Source: Candidatus Zhuqueibacterota bacterium
Lineage (GTDB): Bacteria > Zhuqueibacterota > Zhuqueibacteria > Thermofontimicrobiales > Thiofontviventaceae
DNA length: 37,151 nt
Reading direction: 5' to 3'
Assembly: GCA_014729735.1 (NCBI GenBank)
Contig: WJJN01000117.1
Coordinates: 1-37,151, forward strand
Shown here: piece by piece, positions 1,231 through 36,229 of the stretch
Layout: each line of letters begins with the position of its first letter
Numbering within the stretch: position 1 is the stretch's first letter
The notes under the pieces: generated by a model
Database searches by the model: none
The model's input: only the letters and a program-made list of their open reading frames with translations
What the model was told of the DNA's origin: nothing
Program-made: the position numbers and the translations under genes

Positions 1231-1246
1231 ACAAATTATAATTTGT
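1231..1246. promoter_or_regulatory. perfect 16-bp palindrome ACAAATTATAATTTGT, 3 nt before the fecR-like start
   Basis: Read directly: the sequence equals its own reverse complement. It lies in the unusually long 122-bp sigma/anti-sigma spacer. It is AT-rich, so chance is not excluded. Confidence 0.25.
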
Positions 1247-1249
1247 AAT

Positions 1250-2338
1250 ATGGAGATTATTATGCATAATAATGAAAAATGGAAAATCATTACCCGATTT
1301 CTTTCAAATGAATGCACTGACGAAGAAAGAAAGCAGGTATCGGAATGGATGGCGAAGGATCCGGAGCTTCGAAAAACAATTGCTGATCTGAAACAGGTGT
1401 GGAATATAAAGGAAACTCCGATACCTGCTGATAGTTTGGACCGAGTGTGGCATTCCATTCGAAACCAAATTGAATTTGATCCGGTTGATACGCCTCGCAA
1501 AGAACAGCCTGACTATTCTAAAATTATCCATTGGAGCAAACGGTATTACGGCTATGTGACCAAAGTATACAAATACGCTGCCGTTTTTCTACTTATTATT
1601 CTTTCTTCTTATTTTCTCTCTCATGGATTTACAAAATTTCCGTGGGACAGTTCACCATTTACTGCAAAGCAGGAGCAATATAAAACACTTACGGTTGAAA
1701 ATGGTCAACGAATAAAAATTACATTAAGTGACGGAACGCGAATATCTCTCGACTCCGGTAGTGAATTAAAATATCCACCAACATTCGGAGAGAGTCGTAA
1801 AGTGTATTTAAGCGGAGAGGCATTTTTCGATGTCGTCCACGACCCGGATCGCCCCTTTCAGGTAATTGCCAACCACGCAAGGATTCAGGTATTAGGTACA
1901 AAATTTAATATCCGGGCGTGGCAGGAGAATCCTACCGTTTCCGTTGTTGTTGCTGACGGAAAAGTTTCATTACGACAAAAAGACGTGGAAGACAAAAAAA
2001 CCGTTATCATTCGAAGGGGTAACAAAAGTGAACTACCGCGCGGAAAAGAACCGAGCATGCCTGTTACGGTGGAGGTAGATCAGTATCTTGGTTGGATGAA
2101 AAATGAAATCCGTTTTAAAAATGCCAGTGTAAACGAAGTCTTAGCACAATTGCAACGTTGGTACGATTTTAAATATCAAGTCCATGATTCGCTGGTGCTT
2201 AATCAACGCGTTTCTGTTCATATAAAAAAGACCAATGTTGATGATGTGTTGCAATTGATATCGATTATTACCAATACGGACATAAAGAAACACGGGGAAA
2301 AAATAAGTATTCGACAAAAAATATCTAACAATTCATAG
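1250..2338 (+). CDS. FecR-family anti-sigma factor / transmembrane sensor
   Basis: 362 aa. It has an N-terminal anti-sigma segment and one TM helix (YAAVFLLIILSSYFLS). The FecR core is GEAFFDVVHDPDRPFQVIANHARIQVLGTKFNIRAW and the C-terminal DUF4974-like tail is VNEVLAQLQRWYDFKY. Confidence 0.9.
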   Translation: MEIIMHNNEKWKIITRFLSNECTDEERKQVSEWMAKDPELRKTIADLKQVWNIKETPIPADSLDRVWHSIRNQIEFDPVDTPRKEQPDYSKIIHWSKRYYGYVTKVYKYAAVFLLIILSSYFLSHGFTKFPWDSSPFTAKQEQYKTLTVENGQRIKITLSDGTRISLDSGSELKYPPTFGESRKVYLSGEAFFDVVHDPDRPFQVIANHARIQVLGTKFNIRAWQENPTVSVVVADGKVSLRQKDVEDKKTVIIRRGNKSELPRGKEPSMPVTVEVDQYLGWMKNEIRFKNASVNEVLAQLQRWYDFKYQVHDSLVLNQRVSVHIKKTNVDDVLQLISIITNTDIKKHGEKISIRQKISNNS

Positions 2339-2348
2339 GAGTTAAATT

Positions 2349-5300: not shown

Positions 5301-5615
5301 GCTGATGTTGTGGGTAATGTTTCACTTGGTTATGATATTGGTGGCTTTTCTGCCAGATTGTCATTTTACTATCAGGGAAATACACTTGCCAGAGCTGATC
5401 GGGTTTTCACAATCCAGGATAATTATCGGGATAATATCAAAAGATGGGATCTTAAAATAAGACAAAAGGTAACTCCGGATCTTGAGCTATTTTTTGATCT
5501 TAATAATATCACCGATCATCCTGATGTTACCAAATACAATATCGTTGATTACCTGAGAAGCCAGGAAAACTACGGCTGGCAAGGTCATTTGGGAATTCGG
5601 TACACTTTTCAATAA
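2349..5615 (+). CDS. TonB-dependent receptor/transducer with N-terminal STN signalling and CarboxypepD_reg domains
   Basis: 1088 aa with a signal peptide. The STN domain is IPLESALSSISEKSMVKLNY...QLAVVP. The CarboxypepD_reg domain is GKISGSVEDGKTGDVLPGANVFIEG...YTVTAKYIGY. The plug is NAAESVGRLPGVSIQRSGGEADGIVIRGM, followed by a long barrel ending GIRYTFQ. GGAG sits 7 nt before the ATG, which is 10 nt after the fecR stop. Confidence 0.92.
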   Translation: MRLLLVVTLIVLLFSVAFAGEKFAFLDLNQYGGKKVPTTLLNRISVNFNNIPLESALSSISEKSMVKLNYSRDLIPINKRVTIQMDEVHAMEALLAVLNNTGTTLKITQAGQLAVVPQSAVNQRKASGSGRGKISGSVEDGKTGDVLPGANVFIEGTSLGAATNLEGYFYIPNLLPGTYTVTAKYIGYASQSKTVQIMPGENVKLNFELEYVVVEGDEVTVTAQAEGQMAAINQQISSARIMNVVASDRIQEIPDANAAESVGRLPGVSIQRSGGEADGIVIRGMADGFNTVSIDGVKMPSTSESRGVGLAFISPNMLDGIELTKALTPDMEGDATGGAVNFILKDAPVGLQVQLALKGGYSGLNSEFGMPKGDLSVSNRFFNNRLGVFAQLSAHQDDRSTDYFDANYRHATGYIEDQPGEAKISSFALRNIDRIRNRYGFTLVFDYRLPGGKISIKNFASQLDEIRTIRESRADPQSSLGGVDFLHQRVESKRRNISNSLSGMHSLFGGQFDWTLAHSLTESETPTSWGIEFESNYSAYTGTLDDLMLPPDQIADMFDYDLSRVRWNSDWVNYNADEAREISSEINYEIPFNISKSLSGKFKVGAKFRQHNRESDSEHWLSDVQGAGGYDEQGRLLRDEVFGDRDLDLVNDVYPALSNFLDESVEASDLLEKHGFLMLSNHNDMKKIADFYSVSKDSELPAYMKEYLPHDTNDYENVSRYGAGYLMTQLNIGKKLTFIPGVRFEHVDHEFDTYYINYRSHMHRYKREQGYKKELGSKQSNAKWLPMFHLRYRLTGWSDIRFAATKTLRRPNYLDYSPQLYLNNQGSSISRGNPELKVQTSQNYDLHASFYSNMVGLFTVGGFYKEIDDLIYRVSSTVHWGDSIPNLPSEEFLGYNPDRDFIGWSLSEPINNKPTAYVRGIEFEWQTRFWYLPSPFNGLVLNTNIAFIDSETKYPRYVATGGTPPFYRDKVDSLIYRSNQLIGQADVVGNVSLGYDIGGFSARLSFYYQGNTLARADRVFTIQDNYRDNIKRWDLKIRQKVTPDLELFFDLNNITDHPDVTKYNIVDYLRSQENYGWQGHLGIRYTFQ

Positions 5616-5845
5616 AGCATTGATATTTGCGCAGGCAAGGAGGTGGTAATGAGTAGGAGCAGTGACATGGCATTGAATACAATGTACAGAAAACTTAAGA
5701 AAGTGAATTCGAAAGGAGGTGTTAAAAAAAACAGGTTTCAATTAATCTATAAGTAATTTGCTATGGAGTAATATGGAGTTACGAATAAGTTAAAGATGTT
5801 GATAATGATTAATTCACAATAACTCAGAATTTGAGGAGGAATGTT

Positions 5846-7540
5846 ATGAAGTTAACAAAATTAGGGCTTTTTATTACAATTTGTTTAATAGCATCGATTG
5901 CTTTTGCTCAGGCTCCTGATACTGTTGTCGTTGATCCGGGAGTCGGTACATTGAACGAAGCGGTCGCTAATTCTGACAATCAGGGTAAAGTTTTTAAACT
6001 AAAGGGAGGTGAATTAGGGGTTTATATACTGAACGCCGATATCAACAATATTGGCTGGCATTTACAGGTCGTCGGTGAAAAGGGCGATATACCGCCAAGA
6101 ATCGTCAGGGATACGGAAAATGACAGGGATCATTTTTTCGCAGCAGAAGGTGACCTGACGTTAAAGAACCTGTTTTTAATTTATCGGGCAATCAATGGTG
6201 CTCCAATGAGAGGAGAAGTGATCTCGATTTATGAAGATTCTGTTGATGTCACCATTGAAAAAGTGATTAAATCAGAGGGCTACGGAACGTTTGTCAGAAT
6301 CCGGGAAGCCGCGATGGTAAACCTTCTTGTCAAAGATTGTATGTTATTCAATTCATTTCACCCCACTAATCACCAAAGCGGTGGCTGGTTTGTCTGGATC
6401 AGAGGCGACCATACCGGTTCCTATAAGGTTGTGAATAACACTGTTTTCAATGTCAATGGTCCGCTGTTTTTAAATCATTGGAAACGCTTTGATCTGGTTG
6501 AAAACGTGGTTGTTGAACACAACACTATTTGTCTGAACATGCGTCATATTTTTGCACCGATGTTTGCTATTAAAAATTACGTGATTAAGAATAATCTGTT
6601 TGTGGATCCTTTTGCACGTGGTTATGTCGGTCCCGGAGATTACAAAGGTGTTGAATACGCAGGTGATTTTGTTGATAATTTTGATAAAGAACGCCCCGGT
6701 AACGAGTACGACGGACTGTTTGCCATAGACACTCTGGCAGCAGAATGGGGAGTCGCTGAAGAAGATCGCTATATTGAAATTAGCAACAACGTTGTTTATT
6801 TTACCCAAAAAATTAAAGACTGGCATGATGCAGTCGGAGCAATTACAATGCCCTGGTTCAATAAAACATCTCAGGAAATGTTTGACGCGTATGATAATTT
6901 TCTTTTCAAGAACAACGTTGAGGGCGTCGATCCGGTTTTAGCGAACCCATTATCCGGTGAATTTTATGATCTATTCATCGAGTATGAAGATAGATTCCGC
7001 ATGGGAGAAACAATGCCCGACCGTAGCTGGGATCCGGATGGTGATGCAGATCCGTTTACGTGGCCCTGGCCCCTACCACTTGATCTGTCTTTTCAATACA
7101 ATACAGAAGCCCAACAGGGTTGGGATCTCGCCGGCGATGACGGCTATCCGGTCGGCGATCTGAACTGGTTTCCGTCAATGAAGAGCGATTGGGAGGCAGG
7201 TTCACAAGGTCCATTGACACCAATTTCCACAGATGTCGCCTCGCAACCCACTGAAACACCAAAAGAATATCAATTAAGCCAGAATTACCCCAATCCGTTT
7301 AATCCGACGACAACCATCAAATACGGCATAAAGAATACCGATCATGTTAAACTGACTGTTTTCAATATGCTGGGTCAAAAAATCAAAACACTGGTCAATG
7401 AAAATGTAAAAGCTGGTAGCCATCAGGTGACGTGGAATGGTACCAATGAATTAGGTCAGAAAGTCAGCAACGGAATTTATTTCTACCGACTGGAATCTGG
7501 CAAATTCAGCCAGACAATGAAAATGTTATTGCTGAAATAG
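5846..7540 (+). CDS. secreted protein of unknown function (beta-helix-like body) with T9SS C-terminal sorting domain
   Basis: The track start 5831 is TTG. The ATG at 5846 follows GGAGGA by 5 nt and gives a clean signal peptide (MKLTKLGLFITICLIASIAFA/QAPD). The body has repetitive N-x-V/I strand motifs reminiscent of DUF4957/DUF5123 PUL surface proteins (memory only). The last ~90 aa are a T9SS CTD. Confidence 0.8.
   Translation: MKLTKLGLFITICLIASIAFAQAPDTVVVDPGVGTLNEAVANSDNQGKVFKLKGGELGVYILNADINNIGWHLQVVGEKGDIPPRIVRDTENDRDHFFAAEGDLTLKNLFLIYRAINGAPMRGEVISIYEDSVDVTIEKVIKSEGYGTFVRIREAAMVNLLVKDCMLFNSFHPTNHQSGGWFVWIRGDHTGSYKVVNNTVFNVNGPLFLNHWKRFDLVENVVVEHNTICLNMRHIFAPMFAIKNYVIKNNLFVDPFARGYVGPGDYKGVEYAGDFVDNFDKERPGNEYDGLFAIDTLAAEWGVAEEDRYIEISNNVVYFTQKIKDWHDAVGAITMPWFNKTSQEMFDAYDNFLFKNNVEGVDPVLANPLSGEFYDLFIEYEDRFRMGETMPDRSWDPDGDADPFTWPWPLPLDLSFQYNTEAQQGWDLAGDDGYPVGDLNWFPSMKSDWEAGSQGPLTPISTDVASQPTETPKEYQLSQNYPNPFNPTTTIKYGIKNTDHVKLTVFNMLGQKIKTLVNENVKAGSHQVTWNGTNELGQKVSNGIYFYRLESGKFSQTMKMLLLK
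7265..7537 (+). other. T9SS type-A C-terminal sorting domain (TIGR04183-like), copy 1
   Basis: EYQLSQNYPNPFNPTTTIKYGIKNTDHVKLTVFNMLGQKIKTLVNE...VSNGIYFYRLESGKFSQTMKMLLLK. Confidence 0.85.
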
Positions 7541-7551
7541 CAGAGCGATAG

Positions 7552-7588
7552 ACAGGTGCAGGTATTCGATTATCTGCACCTGTTTTTT
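7552..7588 (+). terminator. Rho-independent terminator
   Basis: Perfect 10-bp stem: ACAGGTGCAG (7552-7561) pairs with CTGCACCTGT (7574-7583). The loop is 12 nt and the stem is followed by TTTTT. It starts 12 nt after the stop at 7540. Confidence 0.75.
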
Positions 7589-7629
7589 ATATCTATTCGT
7601 GAGGTGATATTAATTTTAGATGAAAGTTC

Positions 7630-9165
7630 ATGCCAATGAATCGTCGTAAATTTTTGGGCACACTAGCAGCGGGCACGGGTGGATTGCTTCTCACAAAATG
7701 TAAGGAACCGGAGTTCGCACGGCGTCGCGATTTGTTTAATAACAAAAGTGCTGACAAAATTGTCCCCGGAAACAAAAATCATATTTATCCTGAGTCGACT
7801 GTTGGGATTGTTCAATCCGAAAAAAATCATGTAGAAGATTTAAATTACGAAGATATTCGTAAAATGGTACATCAGGCTATAGAATACGCCGGCGGATTTG
7901 AAAATCTGATTCATAACAACGATATTGTGGTTTTAAAGCCCAATATCATGTGTCTCTGGATAAATTCCACCGGTCAAAAACTAATACCGGATGCAAACGG
8001 CGTAACAGCGGATTGGCGTGTGACACGGGCGGTTGTGGAGCTCGTCCGTAAATATAACCCGGATGGGAAGGTTTTTATCATTGAAAGCTCTGCTTTTCAA
8101 TGCACAGAACTTGCAATGATGGAACTTAAATACATGCCGGATTATATCCCCGGCGTCGATGCCTTTCTCTGTCTGGAGAATTGCAGCGGTAATTATGAAG
8201 AATGGGATTCCTCAAAACTGAGTAGAGTAACTTTGCCAAATGGCGTTGGATTGTACCCGGATTCGATGAAACCCAACCTTTCACCGGAATTTTATTTGAA
8301 CAGACTATACTACGAAGCCGATGTTGTAATCAGCTTGCCGGTACTCAAAAATCACACGCATACAGGCATTACAGGTGCGCTAAAGAATGTGTCCGTGGGT
8401 GCAAGTCCGCCGAATATTTACGGCAAATTGATGGAGCCATCGGTAACAAGCGCCACGCAAAAAATTGTGTCCCAATTCGGCAGGCGGCTGGAATTGAACC
8501 GGTGGTATAAAATCAATCACGATCCGATTTATCTGGATACGTGGATTCACGACTATTTTCTGTGCCGACCGGTGGATTTCGTCGTCACCGATGGTTTGAA
8601 CGGATTGCAGAACGGACCCGATATATCGAAATTAGTGAAACAAAAAAGCCTGGCTGAAAACCTGATGAACATGCGAACGATTTTAGCCGGCAGAGATGCG
8701 CTGGCTGTGGACACTGTTCATGCGCTCTTGATTGGAATGGATCCGGCGAAAATCGAGCATCTTGTGTTGCTGTCGAATAAGGGGATCGGTTGTACTGATC
8801 CTGCACGAATTAAAATTCAGGGTAAAATGGTTCATCAATTGAAAAAATCCTTTGAAATGAATTATGAACGTTCATCGCAAAAAATGTATTCAAAATTCAA
8901 TTCACCGGAATTCAAGGTAAAATCAGCATTTTATTCGGATGATAAATTAAATATTGAACTTGGCGCGAATCCGAGAGAGATTTCCAAAATTGAAATTGCT
9001 GTGAACGGTCAATTGCTGGAGACTGCTGTCGTCGGGGGATACGACACTATTTCGCTGGATATCGGTCCGCTTCATTCAGAACAGAATCAACTGGATATTT
9101 ACGCGTATGATTGCTACTTGAATTGCGCGCATAAGTCCCAAAAAATCAAGCGCAGTATTGCCTGA
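7630..9165 (+). CDS. Tat-leader DUF362 domain protein with C-terminal beta-sandwich extension
   Basis: Twin-arginine leader MPMNRRKFLGTLAAGTGGLLLTKC. DUF362 core motifs are VVLKPN, ADVVISLPVLKNHTHTGITGALKN, VTDGLNGLQNGP and ILAGRDALAVDTVHALLIGMDP. A ~100-aa C-terminal Ig-like tail follows. Confidence 0.82.
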   Translation: MPMNRRKFLGTLAAGTGGLLLTKCKEPEFARRRDLFNNKSADKIVPGNKNHIYPESTVGIVQSEKNHVEDLNYEDIRKMVHQAIEYAGGFENLIHNNDIVVLKPNIMCLWINSTGQKLIPDANGVTADWRVTRAVVELVRKYNPDGKVFIIESSAFQCTELAMMELKYMPDYIPGVDAFLCLENCSGNYEEWDSSKLSRVTLPNGVGLYPDSMKPNLSPEFYLNRLYYEADVVISLPVLKNHTHTGITGALKNVSVGASPPNIYGKLMEPSVTSATQKIVSQFGRRLELNRWYKINHDPIYLDTWIHDYFLCRPVDFVVTDGLNGLQNGPDISKLVKQKSLAENLMNMRTILAGRDALAVDTVHALLIGMDPAKIEHLVLLSNKGIGCTDPARIKIQGKMVHQLKKSFEMNYERSSQKMYSKFNSPEFKVKSAFYSDDKLNIELGANPREISKIEIAVNGQLLETAVVGGYDTISLDIGPLHSEQNQLDIYAYDCYLNCAHKSQKIKRSIA

Positions 9166-9213
9166 TCAACAATACATCGCTTTTAAAATCCTCTTATTCG
9201 TGAAGGAATAAAT

Positions 9214-10866
9214 ATGAAAAGACGTACTTTTATAAAACATGCTGCCACGATTGGCGCCGCGGCAGTCATAAATCCCGTTGATATTTTTGGTGAAATATTT
9301 CGGGGAAATTCCGGTTATTTCAGGATTCACCCATTCATTGAAAATAACCCGGATGCTGTCTTTATCATGAAAACAGACGTTCAACAAAAATCCGACTCAA
9401 CCGCTATCAAACAAATCGGTCTTGAATTCGGGCGCACAGTTTTTCTGGGATCGGATGCTGCGGAAAATAGAGTCCCTCTTACTCATAATATTGTTATTAA
9501 ACCGAATTTGACGCGGCGTTACAGAGAAAATCCGCAATATACGATTGAAGGGACCATGGGAATCGTCACAGACTCGAGTTTCATCGAAGGCATAATCGAA
9601 AGCATGAAGGAATTGGGACTGGCAGGTAATCAATTTTATTTACGGGAAGTAAATTGTGATGACATCGAATGGGAGCACGGCGGTTTTTGGGACGTGTGCG
9701 AGCGAACCGGTGCAGACCTGCAGAATTTCGATATCAATATCGAGGATATGGATCCTGAAAACGTTCACTGGGTTGATGTTCCGGATGGTATCTATTTCAA
9801 TAGACTCCCTTATGTCGCACCTGTGAATACACCTGATAGCTGGCTACTCAATATTGCGAAATTTAAAGCGCACGGCATGGGATTAACTTTATGCGCAAAA
9901 AACCTGCAGGGCACGATTGTCAAGGAGTATCAGGGGCACTGCCGTTCACTCAGCTCTTATGTGAGAAAGCAGGGCATTTCCAAAGACAATATTCGCCCGA
10001 CTGCCGAAAGCGACGTGCAAAATAATTATGAACGTCACAAATCAGACATCCCGCGCTGGGATAAGCCGAACGGACCGTTAAGCGGACAACGAATGGAAAC
10101 ATGGGCTACTCGTTGCCTGGATAATAACTCTGTCACAAAACCCGGATTGCATATCATCGAGGGAATTTATGGCAGGAATGGTAATTTTATCAACGGACCT
10201 CACGCTTCGGACGGCAGTATTGATCTGAACAACAAAAATAATCTTGCAAAAGATTTCTTGTCAAATATTCTCATCTTTGGCAAAAATCCGTTTTATGTAG
10301 ATATTGTCGGTCATTGGCTCGGTGGGCACGAGCCAGGGAATATCGGACTTTTTCATGTGGCGATGGAACGGGGCTTTATCGATTATCTGAATCCAATGGA
10401 TATTCCGGTATATGAATGGAAATCCGATGGCTCGGCAATCAAGACACCTCTGACCAATTTTGAAAAAACGCCATTGGTGACATATTATCTACAAAGAAAT
10501 TATGACGGACAGGATGAATCTTACTGGCATTTAATGGATGAGCCTTTTGACTATAGCAAATTTTCAAAGGTCAATGTCGCACAGAAAAATGCAGAAAAAC
10601 CGGGCACATTCATACTCGCTCAAAATTATCCGAATCCGTTTAACAATAGTACGTCCATACAATACTCGATTCCGAAAAACGGACACGTTCGTATCGATGT
10701 CATTAATTCATCCGGGCAGGTTGTGGATCAGTTGGTGAATCGATTTCATGCGGGAGGAAATTACATGGTCAACTGGAACACGGCACACGTCGCATCGGGA
10801 ACGTATTTTTATCGTTTTTCTTATGATGGATTTCACGAAGTCAAAAAAATGGTGTTGCTGAGATAG
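9214..10866 (+). CDS. DUF362 domain protein with Tat leader and T9SS C-terminal sorting domain
   Basis: Leader MKRRTFIKHAATIGAAAV. DUF362 motifs are IVIKPNLT, IAKFKAHGMGLTLCAKNLQG, IIEGIYGRNGNF and LIFGKNPFYVDIVGHWLGGHEP. It ends in a T9SS CTD. Confidence 0.78.
   Translation: MKRRTFIKHAATIGAAAVINPVDIFGEIFRGNSGYFRIHPFIENNPDAVFIMKTDVQQKSDSTAIKQIGLEFGRTVFLGSDAAENRVPLTHNIVIKPNLTRRYRENPQYTIEGTMGIVTDSSFIEGIIESMKELGLAGNQFYLREVNCDDIEWEHGGFWDVCERTGADLQNFDINIEDMDPENVHWVDVPDGIYFNRLPYVAPVNTPDSWLLNIAKFKAHGMGLTLCAKNLQGTIVKEYQGHCRSLSSYVRKQGISKDNIRPTAESDVQNNYERHKSDIPRWDKPNGPLSGQRMETWATRCLDNNSVTKPGLHIIEGIYGRNGNFINGPHASDGSIDLNNKNNLAKDFLSNILIFGKNPFYVDIVGHWLGGHEPGNIGLFHVAMERGFIDYLNPMDIPVYEWKSDGSAIKTPLTNFEKTPLVTYYLQRNYDGQDESYWHLMDEPFDYSKFSKVNVAQKNAEKPGTFILAQNYPNPFNNSTSIQYSIPKNGHVRIDVINSSGQVVDQLVNRFHAGGNYMVNWNTAHVASGTYFYRFSYDGFHEVKKMVLLR
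10609..10863 (+). other. T9SS type-A C-terminal sorting domain, copy 2
   Basis: FILAQNYPNPFNNSTSIQYSIPKNGHVRIDVINSSGQVVDQLV...ASGTYFYRFSYDGFHEVKKMVLLR. Confidence 0.85.
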
Positions 10867-11006
10867 AACTAACGTGATAAGATAAAAATCAGGACAGAAG
10901 GATTTTGTAAATCTAATTGTTCGTAAATAATGCTTTTAATGTCACCGATGTTTTCATTTATAAAAAAAAACAGCATTTTTCACCCTCAACTGAGAAATAG
11001 AAACAG

Positions 11007-12539
11007 ATGCAAAAAAAACTTCAATATCTAATTGTTTTACATTTATTTTTTGTCTCTATTATGAATGCTCAGCACACTGGCGAGGCTTTCTTTGAAAATT
11101 TATCTGATCTGCCTTATCTTTATCAGGATATCCGGGCAATTTATCTCACCAGTTATGATCGCAGCGGTGGAAATGATGATGGTTTTCACGGTACGTATTC
11201 CGAAATTTACAGAGACGAAAATGGCGAGCATGTCATTTTTGATGAAGAGGGCTCAGGCTGCGTTTACGGCGTATACTTTACTCATCCGGCGAATTTCACT
11301 CTCGGTAGACTGAAATTTTATTTTCACAATGAAAAAGCATTGCGTATCGATGTGGACGCAGACAGCTTTTTCGCCCGCAGATACGCACCATTTATTTATC
11401 CATTGGTTTATGACCGATATATATCATCCGGTGGATTCTCGTCTGTTGTGCCGATTTCATTTTCACAAGGATTGAAGATCACTACGGAACGAAAACCCGG
11501 ATTTTATGGCATTTACTATCATTTGATAAAGGGACGGAAAATTACATCTTATCAGAAAAAGAGCGATTTCAAAAACTTGATTGATTTGTTCCAAAAGTGC
11601 GGCGCAGATCCTAAACAAAATGCAGAGGTCGATTCTGTGTACGAAACAGTGGTAGATCTAGAGGGTGCAAACGTTGGTGAAATACGGCATGTATTTTCAT
11701 ATCAGGCAGAGGGCGTGGTGCAATTCATTCGCCTGAATCCGCTGTTTACACCGGACGCATTCGCGCTGAATCATACCAATTTAAAAATTACTTTTGATGA
11801 TGACACATCAACCACATTTTCCGTACCCATCGGCTCGTTTTTCGGTTCCGGTCTGGGCGAAACCGAGGTCAGGAGCCTGTTCGTCGGCATGTCGCCGTCG
11901 GGATCATATTATTGTTATTTCCCGATGCCTTTTCAAAACAGCCTGAAAATCGAACTGGAAAACATGAAATACAATGCAAGCGATTATCCAAAAACAATTG
12001 AGCAGTATTATTTTGAGATCGGTATCTCCACGAAATTTCTCAAAAATAGAACTGACGCCGAAATTGGGTATTTCGGTGCCAGCTACAGCCATGCCTATCC
12101 GGCGACAGGCGGTGATGACTATCGGCTGTTCGATTACACTGGTCGCGGAGCCGTATTAGGTCATGTGGTTACGATCGAGCCGGTGCATGATGATGTAAAA
12201 AAATGGTGGGAAGGCGATTTGCGAATGTGGATTGATGGTGAGACGGAGCCATCATTTCATGGCACAGGACATGAGGAAGATTTGTCCCAGGGTGGCTGGT
12301 CCAGCTTTTGGCTGATGAATCCGTTTACGCTGCCGCTTTTTGGGGAGCCAAAAACCACAGGACATCGGATGATTGACGGGCAGACAAACGCCAGCACCAC
12401 AACGTACCGTTTTTATCCGGGCACGATTCCGTTCTCAACATCAATGAAAATCAGTATCGAACATGGCACGAAAAATAACCGGGCAGCGAATTATTCGTCG
12501 GTGGTTTATTATTACTATGATCCGGTGCAGACAAAGTAG
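11007..12539 (+). CDS. DUF2961 / glycoside hydrolase family 172 protein, secreted
   Basis: Signal peptide MQKKLQYLIVLHLFFVSIMNA. Family-typical motifs are SYDRSGGNDDG near the N-terminus and WWEGDLRMWIDGETEPSFHGTGHEED near the C-terminus. Confidence 0.82.
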   Translation: MQKKLQYLIVLHLFFVSIMNAQHTGEAFFENLSDLPYLYQDIRAIYLTSYDRSGGNDDGFHGTYSEIYRDENGEHVIFDEEGSGCVYGVYFTHPANFTLGRLKFYFHNEKALRIDVDADSFFARRYAPFIYPLVYDRYISSGGFSSVVPISFSQGLKITTERKPGFYGIYYHLIKGRKITSYQKKSDFKNLIDLFQKCGADPKQNAEVDSVYETVVDLEGANVGEIRHVFSYQAEGVVQFIRLNPLFTPDAFALNHTNLKITFDDDTSTTFSVPIGSFFGSGLGETEVRSLFVGMSPSGSYYCYFPMPFQNSLKIELENMKYNASDYPKTIEQYYFEIGISTKFLKNRTDAEIGYFGASYSHAYPATGGDDYRLFDYTGRGAVLGHVVTIEPVHDDVKKWWEGDLRMWIDGETEPSFHGTGHEEDLSQGGWSSFWLMNPFTLPLFGEPKTTGHRMIDGQTNASTTTYRFYPGTIPFSTSMKISIEHGTKNNRAANYSSVVYYYYDPVQTK

Positions 12540-23358: not shown

Positions 23359-24588
23359 ATGAATCAATTTAAGATAATTTTCATATCGTTATTCATAATT
23401 TTTGTCGCATTAACAACTACAACGTATTCCGGAGAAAAAAATTCCACCCGTGTGCAGGGACTGTTCTATCTGGATGGTGAGCCGATTTCCGTTGTCATCG
23501 AAGACGGGCGCATCTCGCAAATAATCCGGAATAAAAAAGCCACATCGTCTGATGTTTACATCGCACCGGGGCTCATCGATGTCCAGCTGAACGGATACGC
23601 TGGTGTCAGTTTTACACAAGCTGGTTTAACCTTAGAAGAAGTGCGCCAGGCAACCAGAGCATTGTGGAAGGAAGGAGTGACCACGTATTTACCGACAATC
23701 ATCTCTGCCAGTCACCAGCGAATCAAAGAAAATATGGCTGTTCTGTCAGATGCCCATGAAGACGATGAAATCGGTGTATCGATCCCGGGATTCTTTTTGG
23801 AAGGACCTTACATTTCTCCGATTGACGGATTCCGGGGCGCTCACTCCAAAGAATGGGTGCGTCAACCGGACTGGGATGAATTTATGGAATATTATGAAGC
23901 CTCCGGCGGGAACATACTCCAGGTGACACTGGCGCCCGAAATGGAAAATGCGATGGAGTTCATTCGTAAATGCACAGCTCGCGGAATCCTTGTCGGACTG
24001 GGGCATCATAACGGTTCTGCTGAAATTATCAAACAAGCTGTCGATGCCGGCGCCCGAATTTCCACGCATCTGGGAAATGGCTGCGCCAACACGATCCACC
24101 GTCACCATAATCCCCTGTGGGCACAATTGGCTGATGATCGGTTAAACGCGACGATCATCGTCGATGGGCATCATCTGACACAGGACGAAGTGCAGGTATT
24201 TTATAAAGCCAAAGGTCCGGATCGAATTCTATTAGTGTCCGACGTCACCAAACTGGCAGGAATGGCTCCTGGTGAATACAATTGGGATGGAAAGCGCGTG
24301 GTGATGACTCCTGACGGTATGTTGAAATATCCGGAACAGGACGTGCTTGCCGGTGCTTCACTGCCAATTCGCATCGGAGTTGGTAACCTGATGAAATATA
24401 CGCATTGTCCCCTGTCCGAAGCAATACATGCTGCAAGCCGAAGTCAGGCTCGGGTATTTGGCTTTTCTGATCGCGGAGAAATTTTACCCGGAAAACGGGC
24501 TGATCTCATTTTATTTACGATAGAAAATAACACGCTGCACATCATTCAAACCATTGTCGCTGGTGTAACAGTTTTTCAACAGGACTAA
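23359..24588 (+). CDS. nagA: N-acetylglucosamine-6-phosphate deacetylase homologue with N-terminal signal/anchor
   Basis: APGLIDVQLNGYAGVSF (E. coli-type QxN metal site), LEGPYIS, QVTLAPE, GLGHHN, STHLGNG, IIVDGHH and LVSD are collinear with E. coli NagA. The first 25 aa (MNQFKIIFISLFIIFVALTTTTYSG) are hydrophobic. AAGGAA sits 6 nt before the ATG. Confidence 0.88.
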   Translation: MNQFKIIFISLFIIFVALTTTTYSGEKNSTRVQGLFYLDGEPISVVIEDGRISQIIRNKKATSSDVYIAPGLIDVQLNGYAGVSFTQAGLTLEEVRQATRALWKEGVTTYLPTIISASHQRIKENMAVLSDAHEDDEIGVSIPGFFLEGPYISPIDGFRGAHSKEWVRQPDWDEFMEYYEASGGNILQVTLAPEMENAMEFIRKCTARGILVGLGHHNGSAEIIKQAVDAGARISTHLGNGCANTIHRHHNPLWAQLADDRLNATIIVDGHHLTQDEVQVFYKAKGPDRILLVSDVTKLAGMAPGEYNWDGKRVVMTPDGMLKYPEQDVLAGASLPIRIGVGNLMKYTHCPLSEAIHAASRSQARVFGFSDRGEILPGKRADLILFTIENNTLHIIQTIVAGVTVFQQD

Positions 24589-24606
24589 ATAGTGGAGTAA
24601 ATTTTA

Positions 24607-25845
24607 ATGAAAACAAGTATTCATGTGAAGATACTTCGAGCGTTAAGTTCAGTTGGTCCGGGACTATTTTTAATAGGATATAACATCGGTACCGGGAGCG
24701 TGACCACAATGGCAAAATCCGGCGCTGAGTATGGAATGTCACTATTCTGGGCACTGGTGCTATCGTGTATCTTCACCTACTTTTTGATGGTTGCTTACGG
24801 ACAATTCACCTTGATAACCGGACAAACCGCGCTTCATAATTTCAAAACACATTTTCAATATGGTAAGATATTAGCGCTTTATATTATGGCAGCACTGATT
24901 CTTGGAGAAATATTAGCGTTAATGGGAATCATGGGTATCGTTTCAGAGCTGCTCCAGGAAGGTTCCAGGCTTTTATTCGGCGGAAACGGCTTTGATCCTT
25001 TTTGGATTATGCTGATTCTTGTCCTCGGGTTGTACGCATTGCTTTGGTATGGCAGATACCAGATATTTGAAAAAGTGTTAACTGTTTTTGTTATTCTCAT
25101 GGGACTCTGTTTTATCGTGGTTTTTTTCATAGTGAAACCGAGTCTTTCGGTAATCGCTAGTGGTCTGGTTCCACGGGTACCACGCGTTCCCGGCGCTTTC
25201 GGACTGGTTGCCGCCATGGCAGGAACCACATGCTCGGCTGCGGTTTTTATCATGCGCAGTACAGTGGTTGCGGAAAAAGGCTGGAAAATTAATCACCTTA
25301 AAAATGAGAAAAAGGACGCGGCTGTCTCCGCGACCATGATGTTGTTTTTAAGCGGAATTATCATGGCGGTTTCTGCCGGCACATTGCATCTGATGAGTTT
25401 AAAGCTGGAAAATACCATCGAGATGATTCATCTGTTCCAGCCCATTGGCGGAAAAATCGCAGCGTTTATTCTCATTCTGGGAATTACCGGAGCCGGGCTT
25501 TCAACCATATTCCCAATTGTATTAATCGCTCCCTGGCTCATCAGTGATTACACCGGAAAACCGAGAGATATTCATTCTCCGATGTATCGAATCCTTGGAT
25601 TTGTCGGAATTTTGTTCAGCTTCGGGATGCTTGTTTTAAAACAAAAACCACCGGCGTTGATGGTTTTTTCGCAGGCATTTCAGGCATGTATTTTACCAGC
25701 AGTTGCTATACCGGTGTTAATTTTGATGAATCGATCACAGATCATGACGCAACATAAAATAAGCCACAGAATGAATATCGGGCTTATTGCAGTCATTCTG
25801 TTTTCACTACTAACGACTTATTTTGCTTTATCGGAATTATTCTAA
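24607..25845 (+). CDS. NRAMP/SLC11-family membrane transporter homologue lacking the canonical metal-binding motifs
   Basis: 412 aa with ~11 hydrophobic spans. VGPGLFLIGYNIGTGSVTTMAKSGAEYGMSLFWALVLS aligns with the Nramp TM1 signature GPG...DPGN...G..fGY.LLW. GTTCSAAVFIMRS aligns with TM6 GAxxMPHNLyLHS. Confidence 0.72.
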   Translation: MKTSIHVKILRALSSVGPGLFLIGYNIGTGSVTTMAKSGAEYGMSLFWALVLSCIFTYFLMVAYGQFTLITGQTALHNFKTHFQYGKILALYIMAALILGEILALMGIMGIVSELLQEGSRLLFGGNGFDPFWIMLILVLGLYALLWYGRYQIFEKVLTVFVILMGLCFIVVFFIVKPSLSVIASGLVPRVPRVPGAFGLVAAMAGTTCSAAVFIMRSTVVAEKGWKINHLKNEKKDAAVSATMMLFLSGIIMAVSAGTLHLMSLKLENTIEMIHLFQPIGGKIAAFILILGITGAGLSTIFPIVLIAPWLISDYTGKPRDIHSPMYRILGFVGILFSFGMLVLKQKPPALMVFSQAFQACILPAVAIPVLILMNRSQIMTQHKISHRMNIGLIAVILFSLLTTYFALSELF

Positions 25846-25990: not shown

Positions 25991-26779
25991 ATGAACAATG
26001 TTACTCCAAATCATGCATTTAAAGTCGATCAATTACAGGTAAAAATATACGATTCGAGCATATCGATGGGACAGGCAGCGTCGGATTTTGTTGCCGGTGA
26101 ATTGAATCGCGCAACCCAGAAACGAGGATATGCCAACTTGATTTTCGCCACCGGTGCCTCCCAATTCAAATTTATCGATGCTTTTAAAAAGGATAAAACT
26201 GTAGACTGGGCCCGGATCACCGTATTTCACCTGGATGAATACAAAGGCATGTCAGATCAGCATCCTGCCAGCTTCAGGCGTTATTTAAAAGAGAGAATTC
26301 TGGATGAGGTAAAACCACAGCAAATTTATTTTCTGAATGGCGATGTTGATGATATCGATGCAGAAGTAACCAATTATGAACGATTACTGAAACAACATCC
26401 TGTTGATGTGGCGTGCATCGGCATAGGAGAAAACGGGCATATTGCATTTAACGATCCCCCGGTTGCTGATTTTAATGATCCGAAACTTGTTAAAGTCCTC
26501 GAATTGGATGAAGCCTGTCGCAAACAGCAACTGGGGGAAGGCTGGTTTGATACGATTCACGATGTTCCGACACACGCATTGAGTTTGACGATCCCGGCGA
26601 TTATGCAGTGTCAGGCTGTAAGTACTGCGGTGCCGGACTTACGAAAAGCAGATGCAGTGTATAACACTCTGAATAGTGAAATCAGTACAAGCTGCCCCGC
26701 TACTATATTGCGAACGCATCCGAAGGCAGTATTATTTCTCGATCCTGATTCTGCATCAAAATTGGAAAAAGCAGAATAG
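25991..26779 (+). CDS. nagB: glucosamine-6-phosphate deaminase
   Basis: 262 aa with no signal peptide. FATGASQ, TVFHLDEYKGM, IGIGENGHIAFNDPP and THPKAVLFLD match the E. coli NagB pattern (GLPTGGTP, TFNMDEYVGL, GVGNDGHIAFNEP, LHPKAIMVCD). Confidence 0.88.
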   Translation: MNNVTPNHAFKVDQLQVKIYDSSISMGQAASDFVAGELNRATQKRGYANLIFATGASQFKFIDAFKKDKTVDWARITVFHLDEYKGMSDQHPASFRRYLKERILDEVKPQQIYFLNGDVDDIDAEVTNYERLLKQHPVDVACIGIGENGHIAFNDPPVADFNDPKLVKVLELDEACRKQQLGEGWFDTIHDVPTHALSLTIPAIMQCQAVSTAVPDLRKADAVYNTLNSEISTSCPATILRTHPKAVLFLDPDSASKLEKAE

Positions 26780-32860: not shown

Positions 32861-34123
32861 ATGAAAAGATTAGTCACAATAATAAGTTTTCTTTTACTGA
32901 TCATTAACACCGGGAATTGCCAAACCAGATTTTTCAAAGAATACCCGGCGGATTTCTCCAAAGAAATAAATAATATCACCAACGGACGTCTGCGGGTAAA
33001 TGATACCAATGCGAGCCTGAATCTCGATTACGGAAATCGTGGCGAAGTGCGGTCAAATGGACTGATGTTGATTTCCGTGCCTGAAAATTTGTTTTCTCTG
33101 GAAAAGGCGGAGTTGTACCTTGAATTATGGGGCGGACATCCGGGGACTAAAAACAAGCATTTTTCGCTGAATGGGAAACAGATTTATTCGCTACAGGAAG
33201 TCGGCGCGGCTGCCGGACATTGCGTTTATTCAAATCCTGTTATTCCTGTTAAAATACAACATCTTGTGAACGCCGCAAATGCGTTATTATTCTCATGTGA
33301 AAATCCAAAAGGCTGGGGGCATTATATTATCGAACATGCAACAATCCGATGCTACCTCGCGCCGGATCATCCGGTGCTGACAAAGAACGGTCTCCATCAT
33401 TTTTCAGCAGAAATTAAACTGGCGTCATCGAATTGCATTTTGGGTGATGAGGTTGGCATGCAACTGACATATCCCAAATCTCATGAATCCAGTATTGATT
33501 CAGTGGTCTATTTCGGACGATATCTGGATTTTGATGAAAATGGTGACGGCATTGAAAATGACTGGCATGGATTTTCGATAAATGGCACATTCGAAAACCA
33601 TCTTGGAACCGTAAGCGAACCTCCGTTTCAAATCGTCTGGAATACGAGCATGATTCCGGATCAGGGAAAACCACTGGCAATTAAAGCACTCGTTTGCTTG
33701 AAAAATGGCGTGCGCTATTGGACGCCGGTTCGGGATGGTTTGTATTTGTCAAAGAACAGAAAGCCGGTCACGTTAATACCTTGTACTTCGATGCCGGTTC
33801 CATTCTGGGCTCGAGCTTCCAGAGAGATGAAAGCGACAATGATTTTGCCGGATAATATCGACAAAATCGAACAAGCAATGCTGTTGATTAAAACATGGTA
33901 CACCCAAATTGAGCACAGTGTGTATCATTTTTCAATCAATAATCATGAGTACACAATTATCTCTGAGGGATGTGACAAGAAACCGTTATTATCAAAAATC
34001 GATGTAAATCCGGCTCATCTGAAATCAGGGGACAATGAAATAAGCCTTTTTTGTGACACCAGGCATCATGGGATCGAAGTGCTGCTGCCGGGTCCGTGTT
34101 TGTTGATTCGGTATCATGAATAG
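32861..34123 (+). CDS. exported protein of unknown function, stand-alone copy of the module found at the N-terminus of the 28406 product
   Basis: Signal peptide MKRLVTIISFLLLIINTGNC (possible lipoprotein Cys20). Shared blocks are ELWGGHPGTKNKHFSLNGK, ENDWHGF, PPFQIVWNTSMIPDQ and HHGIEVLLPGPCLLIRY. Confidence 0.72.
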   Translation: MKRLVTIISFLLLIINTGNCQTRFFKEYPADFSKEINNITNGRLRVNDTNASLNLDYGNRGEVRSNGLMLISVPENLFSLEKAELYLELWGGHPGTKNKHFSLNGKQIYSLQEVGAAAGHCVYSNPVIPVKIQHLVNAANALLFSCENPKGWGHYIIEHATIRCYLAPDHPVLTKNGLHHFSAEIKLASSNCILGDEVGMQLTYPKSHESSIDSVVYFGRYLDFDENGDGIENDWHGFSINGTFENHLGTVSEPPFQIVWNTSMIPDQGKPLAIKALVCLKNGVRYWTPVRDGLYLSKNRKPVTLIPCTSMPVPFWARASREMKATMILPDNIDKIEQAMLLIKTWYTQIEHSVYHFSINNHEYTIISEGCDKKPLLSKIDVNPAHLKSGDNEISLFCDTRHHGIEVLLPGPCLLIRYHE

Positions 34124-34165: not shown

Positions 34166-36229
34166 ATGAACCAACCTGAAATTACCTGGTCACTCATGCA
34201 CCCGACGCCATTGGATGTGGATTATTTCAATAAGGTGATCAAGGCATCTACGAAATATCATGTCGATAGCTTTGAAATTTGTGGCGAGTGTCATACGACT
34301 TATGGCGGTATAGATGGTTTAATTTTTTTCAAGGATTATCCTGCTGTCCGGCAACATGTCGATTCTACGATTATCAAAAGTAATCAGGAAAAATTGAATT
34401 CGATCATCCGAGCGGCGCATAACATTGGAAGACCGGTTTACCTCTGGCACCGGGAAATCATGCTGCCGGAGGCAATGCCCGAATTCGCACCGGAGCTTTT
34501 TGATGAAAACCTAGAGCTCGATCTATTTGGAAATGCCTTTCGCATTTTTCTTAAAAACAAACTAACTGAATTTTTTGAGTCAATCCCTAACCTTGACGGA
34601 CTGGTGCTTACCTTAACCGAAGCTGATTTCTCGGTAATTCACCACTCGGATTCAGATCGCTATCCGCCGGTGAAGGTGGTTGAATATATCGTGCGTATTT
34701 TTGCCGAATTTTTAAATATTCATAACAAACAGTTCATCTTGCGCTCTTTTGGTTCAATTGACAGGGATTACGAGGATATTTTAGCCGGTGCAGAATTAGC
34801 GGCAAAAGATTTTCACTTTGAAATTGAGACCAAAATTACGGCATTTGATTTCAATCCATTTTTCCCTGTGAATCCGTATTTAAAACATGTTCCCGGAACA
34901 ACATTGTCCGCAGAATGCGATAGTCTGGGCGAATTTATGGGAGCCGGGCAATTGCCTGCAGCCAATGTAGATAACATTGTCACCTATGTCAAAGCCGGAT
35001 ATGAACGCAAGATTGAACGGTTTGCCATCCGAGTGGATCGGGTCGGGAATTCCATAATTAATTCAGCGTATGAAATCAATCTTTTCGCTTATGATCAGGC
35101 GATAAAAAACCCGAAAGTGAACCCGGAGGAAATTTACAGCATCTGGGCGGAACAGCATTGTCCGGATTGCGAGCGGGAGTTGATTAATATATTGAAATTC
35201 GGATTTGAATATGTCACCAAAATGCTGTATATCGACGGACAATTGATTTTTCACACCAACCCGGTGTCACCGATGATCAAATGGTTAAAAGCCGGCGGTA
35301 TTCCGGCGGTTTTTCAGGAAAATGTATCGCTGGAAAATCACCGTCATATTTGGTCCATTTTTGATGAGAAACAATCACCCACTCACGAAAAAATTTTGCG
35401 GGAAAAAGACCAGGCAATCGAACTGGCGCTCGCTGTTCTGAAGAAACTGGATTTCACGAAAAACAAGATGAATCCTGATTTCTATAAAAAGCTCCGTCAA
35501 TTATGGGAAAATGCATTAAAAGTAGGTGTTGCTATTCGTGCGTTATGTGAGTGCTTATGTGCTTACGTCACAGACATGAGACAGCGAAAACCGAATTTCC
35601 CGGAATTAACTCATGCGATTAAGAATGCGCAGATGTCAATTCAACCGATTATTGATCGAAAGCAGAAAATAAAAGCACATGAGAATTCCGAATCTGTTTC
35701 CGATGCCATTGAACATGATATTTTCAAAGTTACATCAATTGAGGTGAACACTGTCTATCTGATACAGATTTTACACTTAATCGAAACGTTAGGAGACGAA
35801 TACATCGCCGAATTCAAAGAAAGTGCGCATTGGACAAAGCGGAAGGATATTGTCGACTACATTGTGTGTGGTGGTATCGCTGATGATTATCGGGTGAGTC
35901 GCTATATGCACGCCAGTCATGGATTTTTGAAAAATAGTCGAGTCTATCGGCAGGTGGGTAATCGCATGTTTCCCAATGGCTATATTGAATGTGCACTAAA
36001 AACGCGTTCAACCGGGAAATATAAACTAATCGTCAGTGGTGATCCGAATGCAAGTGAGGGATTTTCGATACTTATCAATGATCATTCAATCAATGCTGAA
36101 TATTCTGCAGATGGTTTCTGGGAACAAGCTATGGATCTGCCATCTGATGCCCAGCGAGTGACAGTGCGAATATCGAAACGAGGAAAAACTTTTCCACAAA
36201 TCTATTCGATCGCGATCGTTAAAATTTAA
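34166..36229 (+). CDS. hypothetical protein, no signal peptide (possible TIM-barrel-like N-terminal half + C-terminal beta-sandwich)
   Basis: A 687-aa uninterrupted ORF with coding-like composition; AAGGAA sits 9 nt before the ATG. I recognise no family motif. The C-terminal ~110 aa (GKYKLIVSGDPNASEGFSILINDHSINAEY...VTVRISKRG) look like a CBM-type beta-sandwich. Confidence 0.65.
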   Translation: MNQPEITWSLMHPTPLDVDYFNKVIKASTKYHVDSFEICGECHTTYGGIDGLIFFKDYPAVRQHVDSTIIKSNQEKLNSIIRAAHNIGRPVYLWHREIMLPEAMPEFAPELFDENLELDLFGNAFRIFLKNKLTEFFESIPNLDGLVLTLTEADFSVIHHSDSDRYPPVKVVEYIVRIFAEFLNIHNKQFILRSFGSIDRDYEDILAGAELAAKDFHFEIETKITAFDFNPFFPVNPYLKHVPGTTLSAECDSLGEFMGAGQLPAANVDNIVTYVKAGYERKIERFAIRVDRVGNSIINSAYEINLFAYDQAIKNPKVNPEEIYSIWAEQHCPDCERELINILKFGFEYVTKMLYIDGQLIFHTNPVSPMIKWLKAGGIPAVFQENVSLENHRHIWSIFDEKQSPTHEKILREKDQAIELALAVLKKLDFTKNKMNPDFYKKLRQLWENALKVGVAIRALCECLCAYVTDMRQRKPNFPELTHAIKNAQMSIQPIIDRKQKIKAHENSESVSDAIEHDIFKVTSIEVNTVYLIQILHLIETLGDEYIAEFKESAHWTKRKDIVDYIVCGGIADDYRVSRYMHASHGFLKNSRVYRQVGNRMFPNGYIECALKTRSTGKYKLIVSGDPNASEGFSILINDHSINAEYSADGFWEQAMDLPSDAQRVTVRISKRGKTFPQIYSIAIVKI

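Follow-up and report, generated by a model that had tools for sequence, protein, structure and literature searches.

An Nramp-Fold Transporter without a Metal Site, Encoded between nagA-Like and nagB-Like Genes, as a Candidate Amino-Sugar Importer

INTRODUCTION

What does a protein of the Nramp (SLC11) fold carry across the membrane when none of the family's metal ligands is left? The question is posed by a gene at positions 24,607 to 25,845 of contig WJJN01000117.1, from assembly GCA_014729735.1 of a Candidatus Zhuqueibacterota bacterium. We analyzed a stretch of 37,151 nucleotides of this contig, referred to here as the window. The gene, hereafter the transporter gene, lies between a nagA-like and a nagB-like gene, whose products are homologs of the enzymes that deacetylate N-acetylglucosamine 6-phosphate (GlcNAc-6-P) and deaminate glucosamine 6-phosphate (GlcN-6-P), respectively. 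The best explanation that we can offer, and one that we consider reasonably probable, is that the protein imports an amino sugar made by an exported deacetylase.

Loss of the DPGN and MPH motifs within the Pfam family Nramp is already known from the literature. The question is one of function, and it has stood since relatives lacking the metal site came into use as a phylogenetic "outgroup." Cellier described PF01566 as comprising the Slc11 family, NRMT, and an outgroup without Mn/H+ features (PMC9606685), and Shin et al. placed NrmT beside the Slc11 outgroup (PMC4072509). A preprint from January 2026 distinguishes paraphyletic "Nramp-related" groups, including "G-motif" groups, with characterized members only in the NRMT-like group and in "G-motif 3," the group of Bacillus subtilis MntG/YcsG (PMC12873925). 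The transporter belongs to this known Nramp-related G-motif class, and its functional context is, as far as we found, apparently undescribed: no account of an Nramp-type protein in an amino-sugar/nagA or sialic acid context was found among the papers that we searched.

RESULTS

The transporter has a full-length Nramp fold.

The protein aligns with the Pfam Nramp profile PF01566 over its full length, residues 32 to 386 covering profile positions 1 to 356 of 357 (E value, 8e-54; 183.4 bits against a gathering score of 29.8). It fails the MntH model NF001923 (59.7 bits against a cutoff of 430) and the nramp model TIGR01197 (24.7 bits against 272.5) and passes the permissive NCBIfam equivalog model NF037982, "Nramp_1" (70.9 bits against 50). 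Because this permissive cutoff is passed, such proteins bear public names as divalent metal transporters. For the clade described below, the names "Nramp family divalent metal transporter" and "manganese transport protein" are probably wrong, every metal ligand being gone. The public record of the identical protein reads hypothetical protein, from a candidate division KSB1 bacterium. By sequence, the closest solved relative is the Mg2+ transporter EleNRMT (7qia; E value, 4e-13), followed by DraNramp entries (about 1e-9). An AlphaFold2 (AF2) model of the transporter (pTM, 0.80) gave Foldseek TM-scores of 0.82 to 0.87 to DraNramp and 0.83 to 0.85 to EleNRMT, compared with 0.52 to 0.68 to other transporters of the APC superfamily, and the top 29 Foldseek matches were all Nramp, NRMT, NRAT, or YcsG entries. 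The features discussed in the following sections are collected in Table 1.

TABLE 1 Features of the transporter gene and its immediate partners in the window
Feature	Position	Strand	Basis
NagA-like amidohydrolase, 409 amino acids (aa)	23359–24588	+	TIGR00221 nagA, 245.5 bits vs cutoff 225.65
Predicted N-terminal Sec-type signal of NagA-like protein, ~residues 1–24	23359–23430	+	Sequence pattern
Intergenic spacer, 18 nt, with GGAG at 24594–24597	24589–24606	+	Sequence
Nramp-fold (SLC11-like) transporter, 412 aa, ~11 transmembrane (TM) helices	24607–25845	+	ORF, Pfam, AF2 model, Foldseek
TM1 motif G28-T29-G30-S31 at canonical DPGN position	24688–24699	+	HMMER and MAFFT alignments
Glu101, TM3	24907–24909	+	Glu in 42/42 clade members (alignment)
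TM6 motif G206-T207-T208-C209-S210-A211-A212 at G-A-T-V-M-P-H position	25222–25242	+	Alignments
NagB-like protein (Glucosamine_iso family), 262 aa, no signal peptide	25991–26779	+	Pfam PF01182

The metal site and the proton pathway are both replaced.

The register was set by HMMER alignments to 7qia and 8e6n and by a MAFFT alignment with Escherichia coli MntH (sequence taken from the K-12 genome), DraNramp, and EleNRMT, and the two agree. Conservation was counted over 42 members of the transporter's clade. In TM1, each of the four residues at the DPGN position is invariant (42 of 42); the Asp and Asn metal ligands are replaced (D56G and N59S in DraNramp numbering), and the whole helix is without an Asp. 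In TM6, the Met has given way to Ser (M230S), the Pro to Ala, and the His to Ala (H232A), with T207, T208, S210, A211, and A212 found in all 42 members and C209 in 41. Thr207, at the A227 position, is in the NRMT state. EleNRMT itself reads D-A-G-G in TM1 (within N-D-A-G-G) and G-T-T-I-A-P-W in TM6.

An earlier note, made from the sequence alone, had read the DPGN position as NIGT/IGTG, which is off by one to two residues, but it was right that the Asp and Asn are lost. Its register for TM6 agrees with the alignments, and it was also right that the TM6 Met ligand is gone (S210 by alignment, the His having been lost as well) and that NRMT keeps its Asp. We looked for intact Asp, Asn, and Met ligands in a shifted register and rejected that possibility, TM1 having no Asp and Met204, near TM6, being unconserved (Ile in the relative P0121).

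The proton pathway has fared no better. All five of its residues are replaced (DraNramp numbering): E124I, D131L, and E134I in TM3 and R352L and R353G in TM9. The leucines at the D131 and R352 positions (L105 and L330) are invariant in the 42 clade members, and E124, E134, and R353 are replaced in every one, by Ile/Val/Met, Ile/Val/Leu, and Gly/Thr/Met, respectively. The Gln of TM10 (Q378) is the only canonical residue kept among those compared. Within TM3, the column of the invariant Glu101 holds Gln, Glu, or Ile in sister clades (8, 5, and 3 sequences, respectively), Asn in the G-P-G type described below and in EleNRMT, and Ala in DraNramp. Judged from this pattern, Glu101 is a candidate counter-charge for the ammonium group of a substrate or for a coupling ion.

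These replacements bear on the explanation that the protein is an inorganic-cation transporter of altered selectivity (Mg2+, Ca2+, Mn2+, or a monovalent ion) serving the metal-dependent amidohydrolase encoded next to it. Membership in PF01566, passage of the Nramp_1 cutoff, a Mg2+ transporter as the nearest solved sequence relative, and retention of Q378 and of the NRMT-like Thr at position 227 would all fit such a role, as would the fact that NagA-type enzymes are metalloenzymes, with metal ligands conserved here, and the report that YcsG/MntG raises cellular Mn (PMC10448178). No acidic or soft residue remains at the site, however, whereas the Asp is retained in NRMT. The genomic surroundings likewise point away from metals: no recognizable metal-homeostasis gene or metal-responsive regulator was seen in the window, in the 80 loci of the genome scan, or in the sister-clade loci; an Rfam scan of the whole window returned no family at gathering score and no Mn/Mg riboswitch or M-box; and the operon regulator is of the LacI type. 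Moreover, the sister clades vary chiefly in TM6 and are found in other carbohydrate operons, as would be expected of organic-substrate diversification. We regard cation transport as decidedly unlikely, and nothing that we observed at these loci spoke for the different cation that the earlier note had kept as its alternative.

The transporter gene sits in a conserved operon.

For the analysis of gene order, we combined the 80 best genomic loci with the window and three loci from protein look-ups, called open reading frames (ORFs), and clustered their products by BLASTP. Neighborhood counts are given over 82 loci, which come from at least five phyla, and the sulfatase and glycoside hydrolase family 20 (GH20) counts further below are given over 84. 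The family of the window's nagA-like gene directly adjoins the transporter gene in 57 of the 82 loci and that of its nagB-like gene in 48, across several phyla, a stronger synteny than the earlier note had supposed. Two proteins of the Gfo/Idh/MocA family, of about 447 and 326 aa, are encoded no more than four genes from the transporter in 41 and 33 loci, respectively, and a LacI-type regulator is equally close in 11. The usual order, on one strand, is LacI, Gfo, Gfo, nagA-like, transporter, nagB-like. In the window, the ORF and its 18-nt distance from the nagA-like stop codon are exactly as the earlier note gave them; the GGAG lies 9 nt before the transporter ATG, and spacer and GGAG together would be consistent with translational linkage of the two genes. 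No terminator-like site was found on the plus strand between the nagA-like, transporter, and nagB-like genes.

Counting partners by type of enzyme gave a similar picture. An amidohydrolase gene in the same direction lies within three genes of the transporter in 68 of the 82 loci, and 60 of those amidohydrolases carry an export signal. A codirectional amine-removing enzyme, either a NagB-like deaminase or an aminotransferase, is encoded equally close in 57 loci and never carries an export signal. Both types of partner occur within three genes in 53 loci. When only the 57 loci flanked by 3 kb or more on each side are counted, the amidohydrolase is encoded in 51, the amine-removing enzyme in 41, both in 40, and neither in 5. 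A nagA-like gene within two genes was found in 51 of 57 loci from Bacteroidota, 6 of 8 from KSB1, 2 of 8 from Planctomycetota, the single Fidelibacterota locus (1/1), and the single locus from a metagenome-assembled genome labelled Deferribacteres (1/1); the arrangement is absent from three Calditrichota loci. The transporter is about 70 to 80% identical across phyla, which suggests that the operon was transferred as a unit.

Where the usual enzymes are missing, others of the same kind may take their place. An Amidohydro_2 protein with a twin-arginine (TAT) signal stands in for the nagA-like gene in three loci, and elsewhere a class III aminotransferase (Aminotran_3) and a signal-less Gfo protein follow the transporter at the usual nagB-like position. 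At the locus of P0121, which is 60% identical to the transporter, the order is transporter, aminotransferase, Gfo, Amidohydro_2 with a lipoprotein signal, and a phosphoglucomutase/phosphomannomutase (PGM/PMM). Such nonorthologous replacements, which keep the same enzyme logic, are independent support for import of an amino sugar made by an exported deacetylase.

Other variants were also seen. In a KSB1-type arrangement (L005, L009, L024, and L034), the nagA-like and transporter genes are followed not by a nagB-like gene but by a gene for a beta-hydroxyacid-dehydrogenase-family protein (NAD_binding_2/NAD_binding_11) and one for a small membrane protein, which hints at another cytoplasmic fate of the imported compound. 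Pseudozobellia thermophila DSM 19858 (L023, L065, and L073) carries the transporter family in two copies; the second follows the first in tandem in L073 and lies one gene further on in L023. Some members of the transporter's clade adjoin genes for a dihydrodipicolinate synthase (DHDPS)/NanA-like lyase and for BNR sialidase-like proteins.

The conserved core of the operon holds only one inner-membrane transporter, the Nramp-fold protein, and neither a sugar kinase nor a component of a phosphotransferase system (PTS) is conserved in it. Enzymes of the NagA family release acetate and those of the NagB family release ammonium, and the protein might instead handle one of these or another small molecule of the pathway, or act as an exporter. 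The amidohydrolase would free acetate in the periplasm and the deaminase ammonium in the cytoplasm, and binding of a small carboxylate by a G-T-G-S segment is conceivable in principle. That would, however, leave the cytoplasmic enzymes of the operon with no importer to supply their sugar skeleton. The transporter has also changed less than its partners (71% median identity to the window proteins, compared with 51% for the NagA-like and 64% for the NagB-like proteins), suggesting that it is the specificity-defining step. We consider a role in acetate or ammonium transport, or in export, highly improbable.

The NagA-like partner carries a predicted export signal.

The NagA-like protein is a homolog of a cytoplasmic GlcNAc-6-P deacetylase, yet it bears a predicted signal while keeping the residues that bind an anion at C6. 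Its N terminus opens with positively charged residues, runs through a hydrophobic core, and then reaches small residues, often followed by Gln-Gln. Of 63 NagA-like orthologs, from several phyla, 53 begin with a strongly hydrophobic segment, and none of 55 NagB-like orthologs does; the NagA-like segment is included in public gene calls. TAT motifs were found in 50 of 57 of the larger and 32 of 34 of the smaller Gfo proteins and in all three Amidohydro_2 substitutes. With the NagA-like protein signal bearing in most orthologs and the NagB-like protein in none, the cargo is therefore most likely the deacetylated product rather than GlcNAc.

A competing explanation holds that the sugar crosses the membrane with its acetyl group still on (as GlcNAc, GalNAc, or a 6-substituted form), the transporter being a functional analog of NagP or NagE, with deacetylation and deamination both cytoplasmic and the N terminus of the NagA-like protein serving as a membrane anchor or reflecting a start-codon artefact. 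A nagA-like gene, a transporter gene, and a nagB-like gene do make up a classical functional set, and the NagA-like protein passes TIGR00221 and keeps its 6-phosphate residues, as would fit cytoplasmic GlcNAc-6-P. Against this stand the signal-peptide shape of the N terminus in 53 of 63 orthologs and its presence in public gene calls, the TAT or lipoprotein signals of the proteins that substitute for NagA, and the lack of a conserved kinase or PTS component in the operon. We judge import of the N-acetylated sugar to be unlikely. The earlier note's idea of a nonmetal, amino-sugar-type substrate thus remains the best reading, but with a free amine in place of GlcNAc, the NagA-like protein being signal bearing; its placement of the gene in the simple nagP/nagE permease slot of a classical cytoplasmic pathway does not agree with a signal on the NagA-like but not the NagB-like partner.

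Both partner enzymes keep features for a C6-anionic hexosamine.

The NagA-like and NagB-like families were aligned with E. coli NagA and NagB. The NagA-like protein keeps the metal ligands E131, H195, and H216, the Q59/N61 pair, H143 and H251, and the catalytic D273. All 60 sequences compared have these catalytic and metal residues, the 6-anion binders N219 and R227, and also a His at position 228. In mycobacterial NagA, the 6-phosphate is bound by the equivalent Asn, by the backbone NH that follows it, and by an Arg and a His that the partner subunit contributes; GlcNAc is not a substrate of that enzyme, and GlcNAc-6-sulfate is accepted with a Km raised about 7-fold (PMC6016474). No account of periplasmic GlcNAc-6-sulfate deacetylation was found among the papers that we searched.

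The NagB-like protein scores under all NagB equivalog cutoffs, and its best PDB matches are GlcN-6-P deaminases (E value, 8e-27). The equivalents of D72, H143, and K208 are invariant, D141N and E148D are changed, and R172 aligns with a Gln. We considered a loss of the phosphate site on the strength of this last change and did not use it, since an Arg lies three residues upstream of R172Q, the local alignment is uncertain, and K208 is invariant. On these sequence comparisons, both partner enzymes still seem suited to a hexosamine that bears an anionic group at C6.

Among the flanking genes, sulfatases occur in 9 of 84 loci, which is about background, and GH20 proteins in 6 of 84, with neither enriched in the flanks; the window itself carries a sulfatase, GH20, GH31, and proteins sorted by the type IX secretion system (T9SS). 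The sulfated derivative named in the earlier note as a possible substrate therefore found no support in the gene context, although the NagA-like protein does keep its 6-anion residues.

In many loci, the two TAT-signal Gfo/Idh/MocA proteins precede the nagA-like gene (for example, L004:6057-8390, with equivalents in 44 of 82 loci); they are absent from the window. The larger is closest to the glycoside 3-dehydrogenase-like structures 8tdf (E value, 2.7e-30) and 8tdh (about 1e-30) and falls far under the cutoff of the BT_2158_fam model, and the smaller matches only by its NAD-binding domain and has no close solved relative. An identity as GH109 was rejected, the match being weak (2ixa; E value, 9.5e-8) and the glycoside 3-dehydrogenase-like proteins closer. 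A protein with a 3-keto-disaccharide-hydrolase domain is encoded in eight loci. These observations suggest a periplasmic oxidative step on a glycoside ahead of the deacetylase.

The clade belongs to a large group of metal-site-less relatives.

More than 120 database clusters are 70 to 79% identical to the transporter, and the species-representative genomes that encode a relative number at least 548. Clustering at 50% identity leaves a few representatives of the transporter's family, and beyond them the relatives grade from 45% down to 25% identity. All of these carry Gly at the position of the TM1 Asp, and they include two large sets, one with G-T-G-[S] in TM1 and a variable TM6 and the other with G-P-G-T in TM1 and V-P-Y in TM6. 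A neighbor-joining tree groups canonical Nramps, EleNRMT, the G-P-G type, and a G-T-G superclade, inside which the transporter's clade is a terminal branch; the distinct clade that the earlier note had envisaged is seen in this tree. The G-P-G type is far closer to canonical Nramps, a representative matching the Bacteroides fragilis Nramp (BfraNramp) at 2e-50 compared with 1.5e-5 for the transporter, and the transporter's clade is therefore among the more divergent branches.

Across the G-T-G superclade, TM1 is near constant and TM6 differs from clade to clade, the pattern expected if TM6 tunes specificity for organic substrates. The neighbors of the sister clades also belong to carbohydrate metabolism. 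P0130 (39% identity) has a PL7 alginate lyase gene immediately downstream (L095:255-2632 and L096:254-2631), which suggests a uronate-type substrate for its clade. P0125 (45% identity) adjoins a gene of the GlcNAc_2-epimerase family, and P0126 (39% identity) has sugar-isomerase TIM barrels, a BNR_4 protein, and an SGNH esterase as neighbors. P0125 itself (L092:1245-3803) is an 852-aa fusion of an Nramp-like N-terminal half and a C-terminal half of about 440 aa, the latter without a match to any Pfam family.

A precedent comes from within PF01566. The family member PxpT of Corynebacterium glutamicum is required for growth on 5-oxoproline, a deletion mutant failing to grow (PMC13274462). On Haloferax volcanii pHV4 (L088:5995-10831; HVO_RS04250-04240), a G-P-G-type gene annotated "Nramp family divalent metal transporter" extends into the start of hydantoinase/oxoprolinase A and B genes, and this locus is a second kind of lactam/amino-acid context for a metal-site-less Nramp relative.

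Other genes in the window.

A locus of the glycan-utilization type occupies positions 582 to 12539 of the window. It encodes an extracytoplasmic function (ECF) sigma factor, a FecR-type anti-sigma factor, and a TonB-dependent receptor carrying a CarboxypepD_reg domain, after which come a protein bearing a T9SS sorting domain, a pair of DUF362 proteins of which one also bears such a domain, and a DUF2961 protein. Downstream of an AXE1-like esterase, two ORFs of 420 and 687 aa (32861 to 34123 and 34166 to 36229) have no Pfam family at an E value of 0.001 or below.

DISCUSSION

A model for amino-sugar import.

In the explanation that we favor, an exported amidohydrolase, NagA-like here and of the Amidohydro_2 family in some relatives, would remove the acetyl group from an N-acetylated sugar in the periplasm. 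The Nramp-fold protein, acting as an inner-membrane secondary carrier, would then move the resulting free-amine sugar inward, and a cytoplasmic enzyme would remove the amine, a NagB-like protein here and a class III aminotransferase with an oxidoreductase in some relatives. The NagB-like deaminase/isomerase would consume the imported amino sugar or its phosphorylated form. The transport direction, and the deacetylase product as the substrate, are those suggested by the predicted compartments of the two partners. Candidate substrates would be glucosamine (GlcN) or a 6-sulfo, 6-phospho, or uronic hexosamine, the C6-anionic forms being suggested by residues, retained in both enzymes, to which a 6-anion binds in characterized homologs.

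Within the carrier, small and hydroxyl residues would take the place of the metal site and proton pathway at the unwound segments of TM1 (G-T-G-S) and TM6 (T-T-C-S-A-A). In the APC-superfamily transporter AdiC, a helix-breaking G-S-G in TM1 binds the substrate carboxylate through the Ser side chain and a Gly amide, and carbonyls of TM6 and TM1 bind the substrate amino group (PMC7048771). By analogy, the unwound G-T-G-S might bind an organic anionic or polar group.

Several points weigh against this model. Export of the NagA-like protein is itself predicted, on the basis of N-terminal hydrophobicity and sequence motifs. Both partners are missing from five loci with adequate flanks and from most loci of Planctomycetota and Calditrichota, and the synteny counts are not independent, Bacteroidota supplying 57 of the 82 loci. 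Both enzymes keep their 6-anion residues, and mycobacterial NagA is inactive on plain GlcNAc (PMC6016474), which leaves a 6-anionic N-acetylhexosamine in the periplasm to be explained. If the substrate is plain GlcN, the lack of a conserved sugar kinase leaves the step from uptake to a GlcN-6-P-type deaminase unexplained. Finally, overexpression of YcsG, which is also a G-motif protein, increased the Mn content of B. subtilis cells (PMC10448178).

A bolder version of the model can be put forward, which we hold to be unlikely as a whole. In it, an N-acetylhexosamine with an anionic group at C6 (6-sulfate, uronate carboxylate, or 6-phosphate) would be de-N-acetylated in the periplasm by the exported NagA homolog, and the zwitterionic product would enter through an APC-like organic-anion site formed by G-T-G-S, with Glu101 pairing with its ammonium group, to be deaminated in the cytoplasm by the NagB-like protein. 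The whole G-T-G branch would then be sugar-acid/amino-sugar transporters, and the pathway an undescribed catabolic route.

Significance.

The clade makes the function of metal-site-less Nramp relatives a testable question, since the predicted compartments of the partners bracket the transporter, the regulator is of a sugar type, and several cultured organisms carry the transporter gene, among them Mariniphaga anaerophila DSM 26910, Draconibacterium aestuarii, Maribacter algicola, and Pseudozobellia thermophila. If import of an amino sugar is correct, the SLC11 fold has been repurposed between metal ions and organic solutes, and a new family of amino-sugar importers exists in marine and sediment Bacteroidota, Planctomycetota, and KSB1. 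It would further expose a periplasmic deacetylation step in amino-sugar catabolism and correct a widespread misannotation that distorts inferences of metal homeostasis from metagenomes. Given the precedent of PxpT, specialists should be only moderately surprised.

Comparison with known systems.

The canonical SLC11 transporters (MntH, Nramp, and DMT1) share with the transporter the overall 11-TM fold and Q378; all five residues of their metal-site signature and all five of their proton pathway are replaced in it. EleNRMT/NrmT (7qia) has the same fold, a Thr at the A227 position, and no proton pathway, but it keeps the TM1 Asp where the transporter has Gly. M-box riboswitches and small MgtE-like ORFs accompany NrmT genes (PMC4072509); no small MgtE-like ORF was noticed as a recurrent neighbor in our gene-order listing, in which most small neighbor clusters are unannotated.

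The G-motif or Slc11 outgroup proteins, which the literature treats as diverse (PMC9606685; PMC12873925), share with the transporter an Nramp fold with Gly in TM1, no MPH, and no proton residues in TM3 and TM9. The transporter reads G-T-G-S and T-T-C-S-A-A, unlike their G-P-G-T/V-P-Y type. YcsG/PxpT/PxpG (TCDB 2.A.55; pxpABC operons; "G-motif 3") is another PF01566 member encoded in a catabolic operon, in its case for a small organic acid that contains nitrogen, and the genetic evidence points to a nonmetal substrate (PMC13274462), a point disputed by the claim of Mn2+ import (PMC10448178). Our comparison with YcsG was by the fold model 9a52 only (Foldseek rank 22; 16% identity), and no pxpABC-like cluster was recognized in the 82 loci, whose neighbor clusters are partly annotated and were not searched for Pxp proteins specifically.

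NagP, of the major facilitator superfamily (MFS), and NagE, of the PTS, are likewise encoded with nagA- and nagB-type genes, and amino-sugar uptake is the role proposed here as well. They belong to different fold families, however, with no homology to the transporter, and they import GlcNAc for deacetylation in the cytoplasm, whereas in the present operon the acetyl group is predicted to be removed ahead of uptake.

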